Source of the DNA: a virus
Lineage: Duplodnaviria; Heunggongvirae; Uroviricota; Caudoviricetes
Reading direction: 5' to 3' (one strand)
IMG/VR virus record: IMGVR_UViG_2681813320_000018
Location: 1 to 7,184 of that record
Length of the DNA stretch: 7,184 nt
The translations under genes were made by a program, and so were the position numbers. Shown piece by piece: positions 1 to 7,184 of the stretch. Under the pieces are notes generated by a model. It had not been told where the DNA came from. It saw only the letters and a program-made list of their open reading frames with translations, and searched no databases. Position 1 is the stretch's first letter. Each line of letters opens with the position of its first letter.

Positions 1-20
1 GATTCAGGGGGTGACGTGTC

Positions 21-761
21 ATGAAAAACATTGCGGCAGTTGGGGTTCTTGAACGTATTCGCAGACTTGCACCACAGGGGTCGGTTCCACCGTACCGTAC
101 GGTGGCGGAGTGGCGGGAATGGCAGCTTGCTGAAGGGCGTAAGCGCAGCGAGGAGGTTAATCGTCTGAATCATCAGACGCGGGTTGAAAAAATTATTAAC
201 CGCTCCGGTATCCAGCTGCTTCACCGGAAGTGTACGTTCGGTAACTACCGGGTGCAGAACGATGGTCAGCGCCATGCCCTGAGTCAGGCGAAATCCATTG
301 CGGCAGAGCTGGAAGGCGGCTGTACGAATTTTGTTTTCAGTGGCAGGCCTGGCACAGGAAAAAACCACCTGGCGGCGGCTATTGGCAACCACCTTCTGGC
401 GAAAGGTCGCAGTGTGATTGTGATAACAGTGGCGGATGTGATGCTGGCGTTACATGGCAGCTACGACAACAAAAACTCGGGCGAAAAATTTTTGCAGGGA
501 TTGTGTGGCGTTGACCTGCTGGTACTGGATGAAATTGGCATGCAACGGGATACGCGTAATGAGCAGGTCACGCTGAATCAGATTGTTGACCGCAGAACGG
601 CATCGTTACTCAGTGTGGGGATGCTGACAAATCTTAACCATGCAGCGATGAATACACTTCTCGGCGAGCGGGTGATGGACCGCATGTCCATGAACGGTGG
701 TCGCTGGGTGACGTTTAACTGGGAGAGTTGGCGTCCGAACGTCAGCCAGCACAGGAACTGA
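21..761 (+). CDS. DnaC-like replicative helicase loader (phage replication protein, AAA+ DnaC/IstB family)
   Basis: 246-aa ORF from the track. Walker [16 protein letters not shown] and Walker B LLVLDEIG are in the order and spacing typical of DnaC and lambdoid DnaC-like proteins. SD-like CAGGGGG at 5-11 precedes ATG 21. Co-directional with the downstream phage genes. Confidence 0.85.
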
Positions 762-790
762 GAAGTAATTTTTATCCGGAGGAAGTTTTA

Positions 791-1561
791 ATGGAAACCG
801 TATTGCATGCACTGAAAGCGATGGGTAAAGCCAATTCTGTTGAACTGGCGGCGCGGCTTGATATCAGCCGTGAAGAAGTTCTCAACGAACTGTGGGAACT
901 CAAAGAAAATGGCGTTGTTGATAAAACGGGTCACACCTGGTTTCTGGCTGGTGAAGGTGAATCCGGGGTAACCGAAGAACAGCCAGCACAGTCTGAAGTA
1001 CCGGATGTGCTGACCGGGGAGGTCGAACAAAAAGTTACCGCGGACATGATGATTGAGTTTATCTGTCAGGATGGGGCTAAAACGTGTGAGGAACTGGCGG
1101 ATAAGTTCGGTGTTAGCATTCGCAAGGTTGCTTCCACGTTGGCGGTCGTAACAGCAACGGGGCGCCTGGCACGCGTAAATCAGAACGGTAAATTTCGTTA
1201 CTGCATGCCGGGCGATAATTTACCAGCAGAGCCGAAAGCCGCGCTGGTAACGGAAAGTGATGGTAAGGCCTTTCCTCAGCCAGCAGGTGCTGCGTTACCA
1301 GGCCGGGAAGCCGCAACACAGGAAGAAATTAAAACAGAAACTGTGGCGGACATTGTGCAGTCGTTGCCATCGTTTACCGAAACGCAAGCAGATGAGCTGA
1401 TTTTTCCGTCCCTGCGCAGGGCAAACCTGGCGCTGCGCAGGGCGAAAAGTGATGTTCAGAAGTGGGAGCGAGTCTGCGCCGCGCTGCGGGAGCTGAACAA
1501 GCACCGGGATATTGTTCGACAGATTACTGATTCTTCCCGCCGTGTTGTATCGGAAAAGTGA
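791..1561 (+). CDS. hypothetical prophage protein with two winged-helix-like repeats (nin-region-like)
   Basis: Track ORF 728-1561. Start moved to ATG 791 because GGAGG at 778-782 sits 8 nt upstream and the DnaC-like gene stops at 759-761. Two internally similar modules (..[30 protein letters not shown].. and ..[31 protein letters not shown]..) resemble wHTH DNA-binding domains. No specific family recognised. Confidence 0.6.
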
Positions 1562-1576
1562 TTGCCGGAGGCGCTT

Positions 1577-1999
1577 ATGGCAAAAGTATTTACACAAGAA
1601 GAGCGGGAAAAAATTAAGGGGCAGGTTGTTGAACTCGTGCGCCAGAATGGGCGCGAGACGTTACGACAACTTGAAGCTAAGACAGGTGCGACAAGATATT
1701 TAATGAGCGTTCTCGCCAGAGAGCTGGTTGCCAGTGGCGATGTATATAACTCCGGCTACGGGCTATTTCCCTCTGAACAGGCTCGTAAGGACTGGCAAAA
1801 CGCCCGCAAAAAACTCTCAAGGGCAAAGCTGAAGAAACCATCTGCGGTTGATCCGGACCTTATCTGGTCATTACCAGATGGCGAAATACGCCGCTACGAC
1901 AGGCGTCTGAACATAATCTGTCTCGAGTGCCGGAAGAGCGAAGTTATGCAGCGCGTACTGGCGTTTTATCAGGGGAATTTTGAGGAGGTGGTGCGGTGA
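1577..1999 (+). CDS. hypothetical prophage protein (single winged-helix-like module)
   Basis: Track ORF 1562-1999. Preferred start is ATG 1577, preceded by GGAGG at 1567-1571 (5-nt spacer). Contains a module (ETLRQLEAKTGATRYLMSVLARELVASGDV) similar to the two in the upstream gene. Stop TGA at 1997-1999 overlaps the next start. Confidence 0.6.
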   Translation: MAKVFTQEEREKIKGQVVELVRQNGRETLRQLEAKTGATRYLMSVLARELVASGDVYNSGYGLFPSEQARKDWQNARKKLSRAKLKKPSAVDPDLIWSLPDGEIRRYDRRLNIICLECRKSEVMQRVLAFYQGNFEEVVR

Positions 2000-2250
2000 G
2001 TGAATCAAAATGCCAGGTTAATGGCAACAAGATAGAACCATGTGCAGCACTGGCAAAGTCCCTTGAGCATGATGCTGAATACACGATGCGAAAAGGTCTG
2101 CTGATATACAAAATCTGGAATGAGAGTTTAACTCGCGGTCCTGATTTTGTGATGTTGCGTTCCGGTGAATTTTCTAAATTACCAGTTCGGGTTTCATTTT
2201 GTCCGTTCTGTGGTGAAAGTCTGAAAACGTGGGAGAACAGAAATGAATGA
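1996..2250 (+). CDS. hypothetical small prophage protein, possible zinc-ribbon (C-x2-C near C-terminus)
   Basis: 84-aa ORF. GTG start at 1996 overlaps the upstream stop (GTGA), with GAGGAGG at 1982-1988. Cys residues at positions 6, 16, 69 and 72 (CPFCGE). Translational coupling supports it as real. Confidence 0.5.
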   Translation: MSESKCQVNGNKIEPCAALAKSLEHDAEYTMRKGLLIYKIWNESLTRGPDFVMLRSGEFSKLPVRVSFCPFCGESLKTWENRNE

Positions 2251-2554
2251 AATTAAAGAAATACCAGTAGTACGTGATGAATATGGCTGCTGGACGCATC
2301 CTGAATATGAAAAATTCTGTGACGGTCGGGAATATATTTCAACGGAAGAGTTTAACGCCTGGATGGAGGAAAATAATCTTCAATACGTCCTCTGCTTCAG
2401 AGATGAAGGATGTGCTGACCTTGATGCGTGTGATGCTGATATTTCTGCATGGGAACCGGAACGACCAGAGGGCAATGGATGGTTTATTGGTTCAATACAT
2501 GACACCGAAGATGGCCCGGTTTGTGTATGGCTGAGAAATAAGGCCGAAGCATAA
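2243..2554 (+). CDS. hypothetical acidic small prophage protein
   Basis: 103-aa ORF. ATG 2243 overlaps the previous stop (ATGAATGA at 2243-2250). Acidic, Cys-containing, no recognised motif. Last gene before the composition drops. Confidence 0.55.
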   Translation: MNEIKEIPVVRDEYGCWTHPEYEKFCDGREYISTEEFNAWMEENNLQYVLCFRDEGCADLDACDADISAWEPERPEGNGWFIGSIHDTEDGPVCVWLRNKAEA

Positions 2555-2585
2555 AGGCTATAAACCGACTAACAACTAAATACTG

Positions 2586-2620
2586 AGGATTTAAATCAGA
2601 AACGATTTTTATTAAATCCT
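2586..2620. repeat. 9-bp perfect inverted repeat AGGATTTAA / TTAAATCCT with 17-bp spacer
   Basis: Read directly: aggatttaa at 2586-2594 and ttaaatcct at 2612-2620. Lies in the intergenic gap at the left edge of the AT-rich block, about 65 bp upstream of the Q-like gene start. Confidence 0.5.
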
Positions 2621-2686
2621 TAACCGGAGGGATTCCTGCACCCTCAAATCATCAGGAGGCCGCCAGAAAGGGCGGTGGAGATAATA

Positions 2687-3208
2687 ATGGGAATAACTAA
2701 AGAACGATTGTTGGAAATAGCAAACCTTAGTGATTGGGCATTAAGTGATGAGAGAATTGTTTCTCCTCATGCTTATGAGTCAGTTACAAGTATAGAAATA
2801 ACAACAATGGCTAGAATGCTGCTTGGTTATTTCAAAATAGAAAATAAAAAACAGATGGATAGTAATGTTGATATATGTGAGATTTTAGACGATTGGGGGG
2901 CTTGGGTTGTGGCTGGTAATAGTTCTATTGATTGGCAGGAAATAGCTGATAAATATAAAAATGTTGTTCCTCATGGTAAAAAATCACGTCGTCAGTGCAG
3001 CAATGATGAAGGGCGAATTATTGACATTAGTATCCTTAGGTTAGAAAGATATAAGCAACAAGAATATGAGTTAATTGTTGCTCATTTCGTGATTGGTTTA
3101 TCTCTTCGTGCTATTGCAAAGCAACAAGGATGTTCAGATGGAACAATTCGTAAAAGATTGCAAAAAGCCTTAGGTTTTTTGACTGGATATATAGCAATTA
3201 CCAGTTAA
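2687..3208 (+). CDS. Q-like antitermination protein homolog (QuuD/Phage_antitermQ-like C-terminal region) with ~60-aa N-terminal extension
   Basis: Track ORF 2675-3208. Preferred start is ATG 2687, with GGAG at 2677-2680 and a 6-nt spacer. Motifs DDWGAW, SRRQCSNDEG and HFVIGLSLRAIAKQQGCSDGTIRKRLQKALG match what I recall of E. coli cryptic-prophage Q proteins of the QuuD type (from memory). The C-terminal segment also resembles a sigma-70 region 4 / LuxR-type HTH. AT-rich like the adjacent operon. Confidence 0.55.
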   Translation: MGITKERLLEIANLSDWALSDERIVSPHAYESVTSIEITTMARMLLGYFKIENKKQMDSNVDICEILDDWGAWVVAGNSSIDWQEIADKYKNVVPHGKKSRRQCSNDEGRIIDISILRLERYKQQEYELIVAHFVIGLSLRAIAKQQGCSDGTIRKRLQKALGFLTGYIAITS

Positions 3209-3846
3209 GAGTCAGCGGTTTTTTTACCAGTGTAATGGTATAAGGATACTCCCATGTGTCTTACATGATATGGAAGCGCTGTTGCTGGATGCTTTGTGAT
3301 ACTCTTAAAGCGGAGGGGAGAGCCTTCCGCTTCAATTTCTGCGTCCGAAACGGTCGTAGAGAAAAATTCTTTCCATTCATTGAATTTTACTGCTGATTTG
3401 TCAGACTTTATATAAATTAGAATTCCTCCATGATCGTCACGTGACGTACCCGTGCCGTAACGTTCGGTTAGCTGAATCCAGCCATTATGAATAGATTTGG
3501 GGCCTCTCCATAATTTTGCTTCACCGATCCATTCGAATTTTCCGAATTGATGTTTAACTAATAAATCAACGTGACCGCCATGTTGAGTATCATGTTCAAC
3601 ATCATAAAACCTACCTTTCAGGAAATTTTTGATCGACGCTGTTAGCTCGTCCTCTCCCCACTTAGCATCTTGATAGAAGTGTTTGTCATTTTCTAAATTC
3701 TGAATAGCGTCGTCTAAATCTTCATAGAGTTGCTTTACAAAAATATTTTTGTCTGCAGCTAATTTTCTTTGAACCATTCCCCTAAATTCAGGATCCATTC
3801 TAATTAATGATTGAAGGTCTGCAGTACAGATGTTTACATCACTCAT
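3205..3846 (-). CDS. hypothetical protein, putative PD-(D/E)xK-type nuclease (third gene of minus-strand operon)
   Basis: Track ORF 3205-3909. Preferred start is ATG at 3846-3844, with GGAGAG 5 nt upstream on the - strand, overlapping the upstream gene's stop by 8 nt (ATGAGTGA). Motif YDVEHDTQHGGHVDLLVKHQFGKFEWIGEAK gives E83, D94, E109-x-K111, consistent with a restriction-endonuclease-like core. The 3' part of the gene (about 3205-3500) is nearer 52% GC while the 5' part is about 35%. Confidence 0.55.
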   Translation of the reverse strand: MSDVNICTADLQSLIRMDPEFRGMVQRKLAADKNIFVKQLYEDLDDAIQNLENDKHFYQDAKWGEDELTASIKNFLKGRFYDVEHDTQHGGHVDLLVKHQFGKFEWIGEAKLWRGPKSIHNGWIQLTERYGTGTSRDDHGGILIYIKSDKSAVKFNEWKEFFSTTVSDAEIEAEGSPLRFKSITKHPATALPYHVRHMGVSLYHYTGKKTADS

Positions 3847-4267
3847 GCAGACTCTCCAAAAGACTCGAAGGAGTAAAGTATGGATAAAGATACTGGCTAA
3901 AATTATCAACCAATTCGCCAGTTTCTGGATGGTAAAAACTTCCTGTGTCTAAAGCATAGGAAATAAGATCATCTTCAACTGGTATTGGTTCTTCCGTTAA
4001 ATTATCAATGTATTGAAAATGCATATCCAATAGATGTGCTTTATAGCTAGATAAATAATCAGTTGCTTTTATTAGCAGGATATAGTCATCTTTCGTATCA
4101 GTTAGATAGGTTAAACCATTGATAAGGGTTTTGTATGTAAAGTGATTGATATTTTTAGCATCTTTACTAACCAGAAAAAGAAAAAGATCACGACACACAC
4201 TGCGAACAGGATCATTAAAATCCTGCTCTATTTGCGTGATAATGTCGTGATATATACTCTTTTTCAT
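3839..4267 (-). CDS. hypothetical protein (142 aa), middle gene of minus-strand operon
   Basis: ATG at 4267-4265 overlaps the upstream gene's TGA (ATGA overlap). Its stop overlaps the next start. AT-rich coding with an acidic C-terminal half. No recognised motif. Confidence 0.55.
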   Translation of the reverse strand: MKKSIYHDIITQIEQDFNDPVRSVCRDLFLFLVSKDAKNINHFTYKTLINGLTYLTDTKDDYILLIKATDYLSSYKAHLLDMHFQYIDNLTEEPIPVEDDLISYALDTGSFYHPETGELVDNFSQYLYPYFTPSSLLESLHE

Positions 4268-5355
4268 TTATGGCCTGATGATCTCGCTCTTCTTTTCTCT
4301 TCACAGGACTTAACAGAATCCAATATTTTTTCAACAATAAATATAATCGAATCAATGTTGTTACAGTTCTTCGCAATTGCTTCATGCAACCTAATTCTAG
4401 GATTATCAAGCATTGTCCTTTTTCCTGGTAATATTAACTCTACTGATAAAATATGTGAAGAACTTTGTGGTAAATCCCAAATTTTTCCCAACTTAAACTT
4501 TGTCAATATTGGGCTTGCGGACTCTCCACTATGATGGTAAACATCTTGACGCAAACACTTTTGACTTGGTTTGAGTTTTAAAGAACTTGTATTGCCATCT
4601 GAGGTGATAAAAGATACATGAGAAATTCTGCCATCTACTTTTTCGTAAAGATCTTGTATTGAACCAAATAATTCAAGAGGATTGTTTAAAATAACGCCAG
4701 CTTCTTTTTTTATAAATTTAGCCACAAGGTATTGTTGAGGCTGTGATTCACTTCTTGGAAGGATAGATAAATCAATCGTAAGAATTAATATTTTTTCTGC
4801 AGGCATTAGCATGATGGTATTAAAGCATTGCGTGACTTGGCGTGTTTTGCATTTTATTTCTCCACCATTAGCACGTAATTCCATACCCGCATCGCTAAGA
4901 TGTGTTGGGTCAAGCTCTATCACTTCAGTGTAATACGCTTTGGATAAAAAAACAGCAGTGTCAATTTGTTTATCACGAATGATATCTTGACGTAGTTCAG
5001 CAAAATGCAGCTCAGTATCAGCAACTAACAGCTCCTCTCTGGATAAAGGAGTTGGGTATTTTTCTGAGAAGGGGCTATTGTCCTTTTTCTGATTTGTGAA
5101 AATTGTTTGTAATTTTGCTACGTCTTCATCGGTGATTCTATAAATAGAAAGTAATCGATTCCCGCTAAAAATTAAACCTTTCCAGAAATCGTCGATTCTG
5201 TCTTTTAGGTCGGGATTATGCTGAACTACACTATTTACACGTTCAATAAAAAGGGGTAATCCTTGGGCCGTTACACCCAGTGATGAACCAAGAAGCTTAC
5301 GGGTGTTGCGCCAGCCAAAGCGTGAATTGATGTTTTTTACTGTTTGCTCAAGCAT
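4264..5355 (-). CDS. hypothetical protein (363 aa), first gene of minus-strand operon
   Basis: Track ORF 4264-5361 begins at a GTG. Preferred start is ATG at 5355-5353, preceded on the - strand by AAGGAAG (5-nt spacer). Long uninterrupted AT-rich ORF. No Walker A/P-loop found on manual scan and no family recognised. Confidence 0.65.
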   Translation of the reverse strand: MLEQTVKNINSRFGWRNTRKLLGSSLGVTAQGLPLFIERVNSVVQHNPDLKDRIDDFWKGLIFSGNRLLSIYRITDEDVAKLQTIFTNQKKDNSPFSEKYPTPLSREELLVADTELHFAELRQDIIRDKQIDTAVFLSKAYYTEVIELDPTHLSDAGMELRANGGEIKCKTRQVTQCFNTIMLMPAEKILILTIDLSILPRSESQPQQYLVAKFIKKEAGVILNNPLELFGSIQDLYEKVDGRISHVSFITSDGNTSSLKLKPSQKCLRQDVYHHSGESASPILTKFKLGKIWDLPQSSSHILSVELILPGKRTMLDNPRIRLHEAIAKNCNNIDSIIFIVEKILDSVKSCEEKRRARSSGHK

Positions 5356-5400
5356 TAACACTTCCTTAATTTTCCCTTAACAATTTAGGGTGCTAAACTT

Positions 5401-5440
5401 TTTTGCGCAGTTTACATAAAAAAATAGTGCGTACGCAAAA
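5401..5440. promoter_or_regulatory. operator-like dyad: 10-bp perfect palindrome TGCGTACGCA inside an imperfect 9-bp inverted repeat (TTTTGCGCA ... TACGCAAAA)
   Basis: Read directly: tgcgtacgca at 5428-5437 is self-complementary; arms at 5401-5409 and 5432-5440 match 8 of 9. Located 45-85 bp upstream of the minus-strand operon start, in the AT-rich divergent intergenic region. Function is inferred. Confidence 0.3.
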
Positions 5441-5496
5441 ACTATCTAACATGATGAGCTTTAACCGGGAAATTTGTATATGTTGTGAGCATAAAG

Positions 5497-5525
5497 TTGG
5501 CTGAGAAATCTAAAACGGGTAGAAT
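5497..5525 (+). promoter_or_regulatory. candidate sigma-70 promoter for the hok-family transcript (-35 TTGGCT, 17-bp spacer, -10 TAGAAT)
   Basis: TTGGCT at 5497-5502 and TAGAAT at 5520-5525 with a 17-bp spacer. Predicted start near 5532 gives a leader of about 170 nt before the hok ATG, in line with the long structured leaders of hok-family mRNAs. Confidence 0.3.
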
Positions 5526-5701
5526 GACTGCGGGTGCTTGAGGCTATCTGTCTCAGGCATGAACACCAAAAGGCAGATAGAGAAAAGCCCCAGTTAACAT
5601 TACGCGTCCGGCAAGACGCTTAACATTAATCTGAGGCCATATCTATGCTCTACACACGTAGGTTAGCCTCTTACGTGCCGAAAGGCAAGGAGAAGCAGGC
5701 T

Positions 5702-5857
5702 ATGAAGCAGCAAAAGGCGATGTTAATCGCCCTGATCGTCATCTGTTTAACCGTCATAGTGACGGCACTGGTAACGAGGAAAGACCTCTGCGAGGTACGA
5801 ATCCGAACCGGCCAGACGGAGGTCGCTGTCTTCACAGCTTACGAACCTGAGGAGTAA
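5702..5857 (+). CDS. hokD: Hok/Gef-family type I toxin (HokD/RelF-like, 51 aa)
   Basis: MKQQKAMLIALIVICLTVIVTALVTRKDLCEVRIRTGQTEVAVFTAYEPEE carries the Hok-family signature (hydrophobic TM helix, LVTRKDLCE, TGQTEVAVFTAYE) and matches my recollection of E. coli HokD (unverified). GGAG at 5690-5693 precedes ATG 5702. The track ORF starts at an in-frame upstream ATG 5645, judged not the toxin start. Confidence 0.85.
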   Translation: MKQQKAMLIALIVICLTVIVTALVTRKDLCEVRIRTGQTEVAVFTAYEPEE

Positions 5858-5927
5858 GAGACCTGGCGGGGGAGAAATCCCTCGCCACCTCTGATGTGTC
5901 AGGCATCCTCAACGCACCCGCACTTAA

Positions 5928-5953
5928 CCCGCTTCGGCGGGTTTTGTTTTTTT
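5928..5953 (+). terminator. rho-independent terminator (CCCGC-UUCG-GCGGG stem-loop plus U-tract)
   Basis: Perfect 5-bp GC stem at 5928-5932 and 5937-5941 with a UUCG tetraloop, followed by TTTTGTTTTTTT at 5942-5953. Lies 70 nt downstream of the hok stop. Confidence 0.7.
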
Positions 5954-6024
5954 CTGGCATTCTGGTTTACAATTCGCACGTCAGCCTGAACACCTGACAC
6001 CTGCTGCGCCAGCAGAGAAAACAG

Positions 6025-6297
6025 ATGGCGCACAAAACCAAATTTCACAATTCTGATACCGACCTTGCCATCCGGCATGGGCGGCGTTCACACGCATTTA
6101 AAACCGACTGGTACCAACACCCACCATGTACTGAAGAACAGGCCGAATGGCTAATTCATAACTACCGCAGACGCGGATACGAGATTAAGAAAGCCCTCAG
6201 CCTCGATTATCGTCACTGGATAATCTCCGTCAGGCTTCCTTACTCTGAACGCCCACCGCGTCCGTCCCGCACATTCCAGCAACGCATCTGGAGGTAA
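6025..6297 (+). CDS. hypothetical small prophage protein (rem-like by position between hok and the DUF968-like gene)
   Basis: 90-aa ORF starting at ATG 6025 with a weak purine-rich SD. Basic, Arg-rich. Assigned as rem-like only because E. coli K-12 Qin has the order hokD-rem-ydfU (from memory). Its stop at 6295-6297 abuts the next gene's GTG. Confidence 0.55.
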   Translation: MAHKTKFHNSDTDLAIRHGRRSHAFKTDWYQHPPCTEEQAEWLIHNYRRRGYEIKKALSLDYRHWIISVRLPYSERPPRPSRTFQQRIWR

Positions 6298-6298
6298 C

Positions 6299-7184
6299 GT
6301 GCGGGTATTACTTCGACCTGTTCTGGTACCGGAACTCGGGCTGGTGATCGTTAAGCCGGGCCGTGAATCCATGCCGGTATTCCACAATACCCGGGTACTG
6401 GTGGAGCCGGAACCGAAAAGCATGCGTAATCTGCCGTCCGGGGTCGTTCCTGCCGTTCGCCAGCCGCTGGCGGAGGATAAATCATTACTGCCATTTTTCA
6501 GCGACGAACGAGTGATTCGTGCTGCTGGTGGCGCTGGCGCATTGTCTGACTGGTTACTGCGCCATGTTAAATCCTGCCAGTGGCCACACGGCGATTATCA
6601 CCACAGTGAAACCGTCATTCACCGTTATGGTACCGGCGCAATGGTGTTGTGCTGGCACTGCGACAACCAGCTGCGCGACCAGACCTCCGAATCACTCGGG
6701 CAACTTGCTCACCAAAACCTGTCTGCATGGATGATTGACGTCATACGCCATGCAATGAATGGCTCGCAGGAACGGGAATTATCGCTGGCTGAATTATCCT
6801 GGTGGGCGGTCCGCAATCAGGTGGCGGACGCGCTACCGGAAGCGGTATTACGTCGTTCGCTGGGGTTGCGTGCGGAAAAAATCCGCTCAATGTACCGTGA
6901 AAGCGACATCGTACCGGGAGAGCAGACCGCCACCAGCATACTGAAGCAGCGCACAAAAAATCTTGCGCCGCTGCCTCACGCCCACCAGCAAAACCCGCCA
7001 CAGGAAGAGACGGTGGTCAGCATTGCCGTTGATCCTGAGTCTCCGGAATCTTTCATGAAACGACCTAAACGTCGCCGCTGGGTTAACGAGAAATACACAC
7101 GCTGGGTGAAGACACAGCCGTGTGCGTGTTGTGGTAAGCCAGCCGACGATCCCCATCACCTGATTGGTCATGGTCAGGGCGGAA
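6299..7184 (+). CDS. YdfU/DUF968-like prophage protein, 3'-truncated by window end
   Basis: Frame translated by hand from GTG 6299 to 7184 without a stop (295 codons), so the track omits it. GGAGG at 6290-6294 precedes GTG 6299; alternative starts are ATG 6371 or 6422. C-terminal visible part has C-A-C-C-G-K-x5-P-H-H-L-I-G-H-G, a Cys/His cluster suggesting a zinc-binding or HNH-like module. Several track ORFs here overlap it on other frames and strands. Confidence 0.6.
   Translation, partial: MRVLLRPVLVPELGLVIVKPGRESMPVFHNTRVLVEPEPKSMRNLPSGVVPAVRQPLAEDKSLLPFFSDERVIRAAGGAGALSDWLLRHVKSCQWPHGDYHHSETVIHRYGTGAMVLCWHCDNQLRDQTSESLGQLAHQNLSAWMIDVIRHAMNGSQERELSLAELSWWAVRNQVADALPEAVLRRSLGLRAEKIRSMYRESDIVPGEQTATSILKQRTKNLAPLPHAHQQNPPQEETVVSIAVDPESPESFMKRPKRRRWVNEKYTRWVKTQPCACCGKPADDPHHLIGHGQGG

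Follow-up and report, generated by a model that had tools for sequence, protein, structure and literature searches.

A hok/mok/sok toxin-antitoxin locus in a lambdoid prophage, its relation to K-12 hokD and its place beside a three-gene cassette

Introduction

The segment at positions 5497-5953 of IMG/VR record IMGVR_UViG_2681813320_000018, a virus of the Caudoviricetes, raises two questions: whether the small hok-like gene in this segment is part of a complete type I toxin-antitoxin locus, and whether that locus is a functional partner of the three-gene cassette that lies beside it. The window referred to throughout is the whole stretch of DNA that was analysed (7184 nucleotides, positions 1 to 7184 of the record). 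An earlier note, made from the letters of the window alone, had read the segment as an intact Hok toxin gene with a possible mok-like frame, a long leader and a terminator, had expected a Sok-like antisense RNA, and had suggested that this module and the cassette form a combined island of death modules. The core of that reading was right, and all of the sequence features that it listed were found where it had placed them; the combined island was not supported.

The window at 5497-5953 very probably carries a complete hok/mok/sok type I toxin-antitoxin locus in a lambdoid prophage. The Pfam and Rfam matches and the folds place it far beyond chance. Judged by alignment, the module is the full-length form of a locus whose 5'-truncated remnant is the reference hokD (relF) of Escherichia coli (E. 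coli) K-12. The hok/sok module is already known, canonical and widespread, and it is annotated in many genomes. As a discovery the locus therefore matters little, and its value lies in annotation and in the reading of the neighbourhood. Exact coordinates are now available for an unannotated Sok RNA and for the regulatory elements, and hok is placed outside the adjacent cassette.

The Hok Toxin Gene

The toxin gene hok is located at 5702-5857 on the plus strand and encodes a protein of 51 amino acids (aa), with a Shine-Dalgarno (SD) sequence GGAG at 5689-5692 and a stop codon at 5855-5857. The product of this open reading frame (ORF) matches the Pfam family HOK_GEF (PF01848) over the entire profile (positions 1-42 of 42) with 82.9 bits, where the cutoff is 22, and E = 1.2e-23. 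It also matches PHROG 251, "MokW-like host killing", with E = 2.8e-33. The ORF had been called intact, and a comparison with the Hok family consensus had been proposed as a check; the full-profile match bears out the former, and in the latter the ORF fits the family. The residues C15, T17, L29, C30, E31 and E40, which are conserved in the family, are all present in the Hok protein of the window, in a numbering one lower than that of the logo in a survey of Hok proteins (bioRxiv 10.1101/2025.08.07.668861). That survey lists as conserved Met1, a Cys, a Thr, a Leu-Cys-Glu sequence and a Glu. The description of the gene as hokD-like proved to be exact, as its coding DNA is identical at 156 of 156 nucleotides (nt) to that of hokD (relF, b1562), which is located in the Qin prophage of K-12. 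HokW of 933W/Sp5, a protein that is toxic on expression, has the same residues 1-44 as the Hok of the window, and by analogy with its homologues the latter would be toxic by damaging the membrane. The Hok survey states that HokD was among the homologues whose coding sequences it over-expressed.

Promoter, Leader and mok

The promoter of hok and mok is located at 5497-5525 on the plus strand and features a −35 hexamer TTGGCT (5497-5502), a 17-nt spacer and a −10 hexamer TAGAAT (5520-5525). It scores 9 of 12 in a consensus scan, and by themselves the hexamers are not significant (3 sites versus 0.9 expected). The promoter had been proposed from the letters of the window, and its −10 and a −35-like element recur in other contexts of hok. 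The −10 TAGAAT is unchanged in six other genomic contexts, and a −35 TTGGCG or TTTGCG is located 17 nt upstream of it in five of these and 16 nt upstream in the sixth. A plasmid copy features TACAAT as its −10 and is without such a −35.

The leader (5532-5707, plus strand) matches the Rfam family RF01794 with 117.1 bits, where the gathering score is 59, and E = 6e-27, over model positions 1-157 of 157. This family is named "sok antitoxin"; it matches the hok-sense strand, and its consensus stops at the AUG of hok. What the match locates is therefore the leader of hok, not the antisense transcript, and automated annotation from RF01794 would put "sok" on the wrong strand.

The names and definitions of the RNA elements used here are those of Le Rhun et al. 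(PMC9841398). The 5' end of the mRNA and the tac element, GGGUGCUUGAGG, are assigned to 5532-5543, with model position 1 of RF01794 at 5532. The tac element is followed by a leader hairpin at 5544-5580, in which 5544-5553 is paired with 5571-5580, and this hairpin is present in the Rfam consensus structure. The two 7-base-pair (bp) complementary boxes that the earlier note had seen in the leader, CTATCTG (5544-5550) and CAGATAG (5574-5580), are the core of this 10-bp helix. The helix is 94% paired over seven diverse hok loci, a small sample in which three pairs are changed on both sides, and the helix is thus conserved with covariation. An assignment of the boxes as ucb and dcb was rejected by the published definitions, which leave them as a hairpin between tac and ucb. 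The ucb element, or anti-Shine-Dalgarno box, is AAAGCCCC at 5584-5591, of which AGCCCC is invariant across the family. The dcb element, AGCCUC, is located at 5665-5670 and forms a stem in the Rfam consensus structure, with TAGCCTCT invariant across the family.

The mok reading frame (5645-5857, plus strand, 70 codons) starts at an ATG that is in frame with the hok ATG at 5702 and is preceded, 8 nt upstream, by its own SD sequence GAGG (5633-5636). It corresponds to the annotated mokW of 933W, and the upstream ATG, which had been noticed as a possible start of a mok-like coupling frame, is thereby placed in a known gene layout. By analogy with the characterized systems, the translation of hok would be coupled to that of mok.

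Folding of the mRNA and Its 3' End

The predicted transcript of 419 nt (5532-5950) folds at −173.1 kcal/mol with z = −6.7. The minimum-energy and centroid folds agree in pairing tac (5532-5543) with the fbi element, CCUCAACGCACCC, at 5907-5919, in a helix of 12 bp with one bulge. The energy of this duplex is −21.5 kcal/mol, compared with −15.3 ± 2.2 kcal/mol when the 5' ends were shuffled. Complementarity of the 5' and 3' ends is kept with compensatory changes in four divergent loci, the R1-type, Citrobacter, Vibrio and Aeromonas loci, in which the 3' pairing element sits 47-59 nt past the stop codon. Examples of such changes are GGGUGC/GCACCC versus GGCGC/GCGCC and UUGAGG/CCUCAA versus CUCUUGG/CCAACGAG.

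Duplex and fold prediction allow the window transcript to adopt each of the four alternative pairings in the R1 model. In a metastable hairpin tac is paired with 5550-5560 (−16.9 kcal/mol, z = −5.3), and tac can also pair with ucb (−10.7 kcal/mol). In the full-length fold ucb is paired with the SD of mok, and dcb can pair with the same SD with a duplex energy of −9.3 kcal/mol. Folding of the transcript had been suggested as a way to look for pairings of the tac/fbi/ucb type; the best fold contains the end-pairing, and the alternatives are feasible.

The 3' untranslated region (UTR) features a stem-loop at 5864-5887 (−18.9 kcal/mol, z = −5.3), which, by analogy with the R1 model (PMC9841398), is likely to be the protective 3' end of the processed mRNA. 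The transcript ends at an intrinsic terminator at 5926-5953 on the plus strand, AACCCGC-UUCG-GCGGGUU (5926-5943) with a T-run to 5953. The terminator scan and the fold (−11.8 kcal/mol) agree on this element, which had already been recognised as a terminator with a UUCG tetraloop. A sub-threshold Rfam match to isrK covers the UTR at 5866-5947 (27.2 bits, where the gathering score is 50; E = 0.0085). The idea that IsrK is derived from the hok 3' UTR was dropped, as the sole Salmonella phage record with this UTR, ZC-S1_prp, has no Rfam match at E ≤ 0.1, and the isrK match probably reflects a generic resemblance between structures made of a stem-loop and a terminator.

The Predicted Sok Antisense RNA

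The Sok RNA of about 71 nt is placed on the minus strand at 5583-5653, with its 5' end at about 5653 and its 3' end at about 5583, by homology to the annotated sokW of 933W. In the fold of the 74-nt stretch 5653-5580, within which the RNA lies, a single-stranded tail at the 5' side is followed by a long hairpin and then a U-tail (−29.7 kcal/mol, z = −4.7), and the RNA is complementary to the SD and to the AUG of mok. The earlier note had expected a Sok-like RNA on the minus strand around 5590-5690. An antisense gene is indeed predicted there; the extent was not correct, as the RNA maps to about 5653-5583 and the portion at 5660-5688 is the promoter.

The Sok promoter (5660-5688, minus strand) features a −35 hexamer TTGCCT (5688-5683), a 17-nt spacer and a −10 hexamer TAACCT (5665-5660). 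These hexamers had been offered only as a tentative candidate. They are located in the same alignment columns as the promoter of the R1-type Sok, TTGCGC-17-TATCCT, of which they are the positional equivalent, and both are invariant between the window and 933W, where they form the sokW promoter. Studies done by Takada et al. (2021, PMC8621323) on hokW-sokW bear directly on this promoter. Their primer YO-421 changes TAGGTTAG to CCGGCTCG, which converts the minus-strand −10 from TAACCT to GAGCCG. The promoter-less sokW construct was toxic, its antitoxin activity was lost and sokW supplied in trans rescued the cells. Additionally, the sokW RNA was seen on Northern blots. By analogy with hokW-sokW, which is 93% identical, the Sok of the window would be transcribed and unstable and would neutralise Hok.

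The Sok of the window differs from sokW at six positions, all of which are located in the first 16 of the 71 nt (5638-5653), the recognition tail, and the 55 nt at the 3' end are identical. The tails of Sok RNAs may have diversified so that hok modules residing in one cell avoid cross-talk, or the constraint on this region may simply be lower. A literature search for "sokD" returned no relevant paper.

Proposed Mechanism and Biological Role

The steps proposed for the window locus are drawn from its conserved anatomy and predicted folds, and they have been shown for R1 and partly for hokW. The constitutive promoter would drive synthesis of a stable, roughly 420-nt mRNA, whose 5' tac element would be held in a local hairpin during transcription. 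In the finished mRNA tac would pair with the 3' fbi element and ucb would cover the mok SD, and an mRNA closed in this manner would therefore be neither translated nor bound by Sok. Slow trimming from the 3' end would remove fbi, after which tac would pair with ucb and the ribosome site of mok would be freed. The short-lived 71-nt Sok RNA from the opposite strand would then pair across the mok start and block the translation of mok and of the coupled hok, and the duplex of Sok and mRNA would be marked for RNase III. Should the supply of Sok stop, the processed mRNA would be translated, and the 51-aa Hok protein would enter the inner membrane and collapse it.

The role of the locus is likely, by analogy, to be that of hokW, namely help with lysis and phage release. 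Sok would be lost on prophage induction and Hok would aid lysis and help to release phage. For hokW-sokW, PMC8621323 reports that sokW disappeared on prophage induction with mitomycin C, that HokW appeared RecA-dependently, preceding the R endolysin by about 1 h, and that the deletion mutant released half as much phage. The locus may also stabilise the prophage to some degree. That the main role is instead prophage addiction, in which cells that excise or lose the prophage undergo post-segregational killing, is doubtful, though it is the least improbable of the alternatives considered here. Addiction is the classical role of hok/sok on plasmids; however, the sole direct data, those on hokW, show a phenotype in lysis and release, and the tested chromosomal hok loci gave no post-segregational killing according to the Hok survey (bioRxiv 10.1101/2025.08.07.668861).

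Several points weigh against a complete and working module. Transcripts, 3' processing, the half-life of Sok and toxicity are all predicted from homologous systems. By consensus the Sok promoter scores only 7 of 12, which is weak, and it was not flagged in the promoter scan, and the kinetics of Sok could differ from those of sokW given the six differences in its tail. The codon of Tyr47 in hok is UAC followed by G (5840-5843), and UACGAACC around this codon matches the anticodon arm of tRNA-Arg2; the local fold in which a TadA-editing hairpin was sought at Tyr47 is weak (−0.7 kcal/mol, z = +0.6). The Hok survey describes editing of the hokC, hokD and hokE mRNAs by TadA that changes Tyr to Cys at the Tyr47 site, and full toxicity of Hok may depend on the editing of Tyr47 to Cys. 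The survey also describes chromosomal hokA, hokB and hokC as giving no post-segregational killing and no response to rifampicin, and intact anatomy is therefore no guarantee of activity.

An alternative is that the locus is structurally intact and, in the manner of several chromosomal hok loci, physiologically silent, such that it is transcribed, never triggers killing naturally and hitch-hikes on the prophage backbone. The presence of Tyr47 rather than Cys, with RNA editing perhaps needed for full toxicity, would fit such a locus, as would the existence of decayed copies, which include the truncated hokD of K-12 and a remnant with coding deletions in a Salmonella prophage. However, all regulatory elements are kept in the window, and across about 2100 genomes the coding sequence shows little or no change. 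The 93%-identical hokW-sokW is also active, in that HokW is toxic, sokW neutralises it, and it has an effect on lysis and on the yield of phage. A silent locus is thus considered unlikely, somewhat more so than an addiction module, and a complete hok/mok/sok locus with a hokW-like role is preferred.

Distribution and Genomic Setting

Among 5426 complete E. coli genomes, 4939 have some match to the locus by megablast, and about 2100 have a copy from query position 120 (window 5519) onward. Copies truncated as in K-12 begin at query position 289 (window 5688). Many records of temperate phages carry the module as well, and so do plasmids. Homology to most genomes starts at 5519, between the −35 and −10 hexamers of the hok promoter, and the slot directly upstream of hok (window 5362-5519) carries cargo that varies between lambdoid prophages. 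Elsewhere this slot holds QueH, an alpha/beta hydrolase, an S-adenosylmethionine (SAM) methyltransferase with a SMEK-domain gene, small ORFs or, in K-12, relBE.

The genes that surround the locus, among them a DnaC/IstB-like ATPase (21-761) and a Ren-like exclusion protein (phrog_142, 1562-1999), confirm that the window is an early region of a lambdoid prophage. They also include, downstream of hok, a 90-aa ORF of phrog_1212 (6025-6297); in E. coli E2348/69, DUF968, RusA and a second Q gene come after this ORF.

Two records outside E. coli show other states of such loci. An IncFIB plasmid of Citrobacter sp. Y3 (1-597 of the collected locus) features relB-relE directly upstream of a Hok-family gene. 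This arrangement mirrors the relB-relE-hokD order of K-12, and the adjacency of relBE and hok is therefore not unique to Qin. Salmonella phage ZC-S1_prp (1290-1620 of the collected locus) features a decayed hok with deletions in the coding sequence, of which the 3' UTR, fbi and the terminator are still recognisable; Gifsy-type genes and a Q antiterminator are located downstream of this remnant.

Relation to the Adjacent Cassette

The cassette consists of three minus-strand genes that encode proteins of 234, 142 and 365 aa. It is adjacent to hok and divergent from it across an intergenic region of 170 bp. The earlier note had proposed that the two may act together, and in its explicit form this would mean that hok/sok and the cassette make up one two-module anti-phage (abortive infection) island. 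The adjacency is one argument for such an island, and another is that all 13 intact copies of the cassette in E. coli adjoin hok. Additionally, the hok/sok of R1 on a high-copy plasmid modestly lowered the plating of T4 (cited in PMC8621323). The counts from the side of hok argue against it, as the junction of cassette and hok is present in only 13 of the 5426 genomes, or 13 of the approximately 2100 with the full module, and in other prophages hok is located beside different cargo in the upstream slot. The Hok survey (bioRxiv 10.1101/2025.08.07.668861) likewise reports that hok is not enriched near defence systems.

The cassette itself is present in 14 of the 5426 genomes, and the fourteenth copy is truncated by IS1. 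In this copy, from ETEC1746 (4593-5346 of the collected locus), IS1A truncates the 365-aa gene, the region expected to carry hok, DUF968, RusA and Q is absent, and terminase genes come next. ETEC1746 was set aside as an example of a cassette without hok and is uninformative, because IS1 truncated the cassette and the region was deleted.

A broader view was obtained from 35 collected loci that encode relatives of the 365-aa cassette protein. Wherever the contig reaches, these relatives are accompanied by a gene of the Q-like antiterminator family and by the 234-aa and 142-aa genes. In the window the Q-like gene is located at 2675-3208 on the plus strand, and together with the three minus-strand genes it forms a four-gene unit at 2675-5361. 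The unit is kept in 33 of the 35 loci, and the contigs of the other two end before the Q-like gene. Identity within the unit reaches down to 31-38% for the Q-like gene and to about 51-60% for the cassette proteins. Hok, in contrast, was found only beside the 17 cassette copies that are at least 97% identical. At 16 loci with cassettes that are 50-76% identical and with at least 1.6 kb of flank, the Q-like gene is kept and an unfiltered hidden Markov model (HMM) search found no Hok.

At one locus, from IMGVR_UViG_2913112809_000004, a cassette with 99% identity is located next to another type of Hok, which is only 35% identical to that of the window, and this also argues against the island. The hok of this locus (4350-5000) is a mosaic. 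Its 5' leader up to the mok start, its fbi and its terminator match the window, and the region of the Sok promoter and the Hok coding sequence are replaced by the divergent type. Such a structure points to recombination inside hok loci in which the ends that pair are kept.

PADLOC returned no match for Hok or for the 365-aa and 142-aa proteins, and for the 234-aa protein only a weak match to PDC-S54 (E = 0.002, 15.6 bits), which is not significant. The Pfam search returned no match for the three cassette proteins, and their PHROGs (12777, 11490 and 9664) are of unknown function. A combined death island is thus highly improbable, given the rarity of the junction, the varied neighbours of hok and the cassette homologues without Hok. 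From the junction counts, the varied cargo and the Hok-less homologues it follows that hok is prophage backbone bordering a variable cargo slot and is not a functional partner of the cassette. The conserved partner of the cassette is the Q-like gene at 2675-3208, and work on the cassette should treat it as such.

It is conceivable, although quite improbable, that hok/sok marks the constant right-hand edge of a hot spot for cargo exchange in lambdoid prophages, with the homology break between the hexamers of the hok promoter and differing cargo to the left of it, and that, in addition, the diversification of Sok tails between prophage lineages prevents cross-neutralisation between the modules of co-resident prophages. 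Either of these, if true, would give hok a role in the modular evolution of prophages or in competition between prophages, beyond that of a generic toxin-antitoxin system.

Comparison with Known Systems

The closest characterized system is hokW-sokW of Sp5/933W, which shares 93% DNA identity with the window from 5519 to about 5929, that is, from the −10 hexamer to fbi. The annotated mokW and sokW of 933W map onto window 5645-5857 and 5583-5653, respectively. The two systems are alike in the layout of hok, mok and sok, in their setting in a lambdoid prophage and in the hexamers of the Sok promoter. They differ at the C-terminus of the toxin, which is TAYEPEE in the window and VDYESEK in HokW, and in the sequence after fbi, where 933W features another sequence in place of the UUCG terminator. 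The neighbours of hokW-sokW and its position in the phage genome are also unlike those in the window.

The hok/sok system of R1 (parB) is more distant. The gene order, the end-pairing of tac and fbi, the ucb, dcb and mok elements and the columns of the Sok promoter are as in the window, and both loci match RF01794; however, R1 Hok is only about 43% identical to the Hok of the window. The leader of the window is shorter than that of R1, as the first hairpin is without a 15-nt insert, and the Sok-target hairpin is longer. The R1 copy is carried on a plasmid, whereas the window copy is located in a prophage.

The same locus as in the window, with 98.9% identity, is found in enteropathogenic E. 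coli (EPEC) E2348/69 (NC_011601, 1439.5-1440.1 kb), where it is labelled hokD by RefSeq (PGAP). Its context is also that of the window, with a Q-family gene, three minus-strand hypothetical genes, hokD, a small ORF, DUF968, RusA and Q.

In K-12, the identity to the window extends beyond the coding sequence of hokD into the 3' UTR, where there are two differences before the T-run, and fbi and the terminator are nearly identical. The downstream backbone is also common to both, with rem or a small ORF followed by DUF968/ydfU and then Q. Upstream, the homology of K-12 starts only at about 5688, and relE abuts hokD where the window features the full leader. Missing from K-12 are thus both promoters, that of hok and that of Sok, together with tac, ucb, the start of mok and the Sok gene. 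Because the homology begins only at this point, the copy in the window is the complete version of the locus and K-12 hokD its 5'-truncated remnant.

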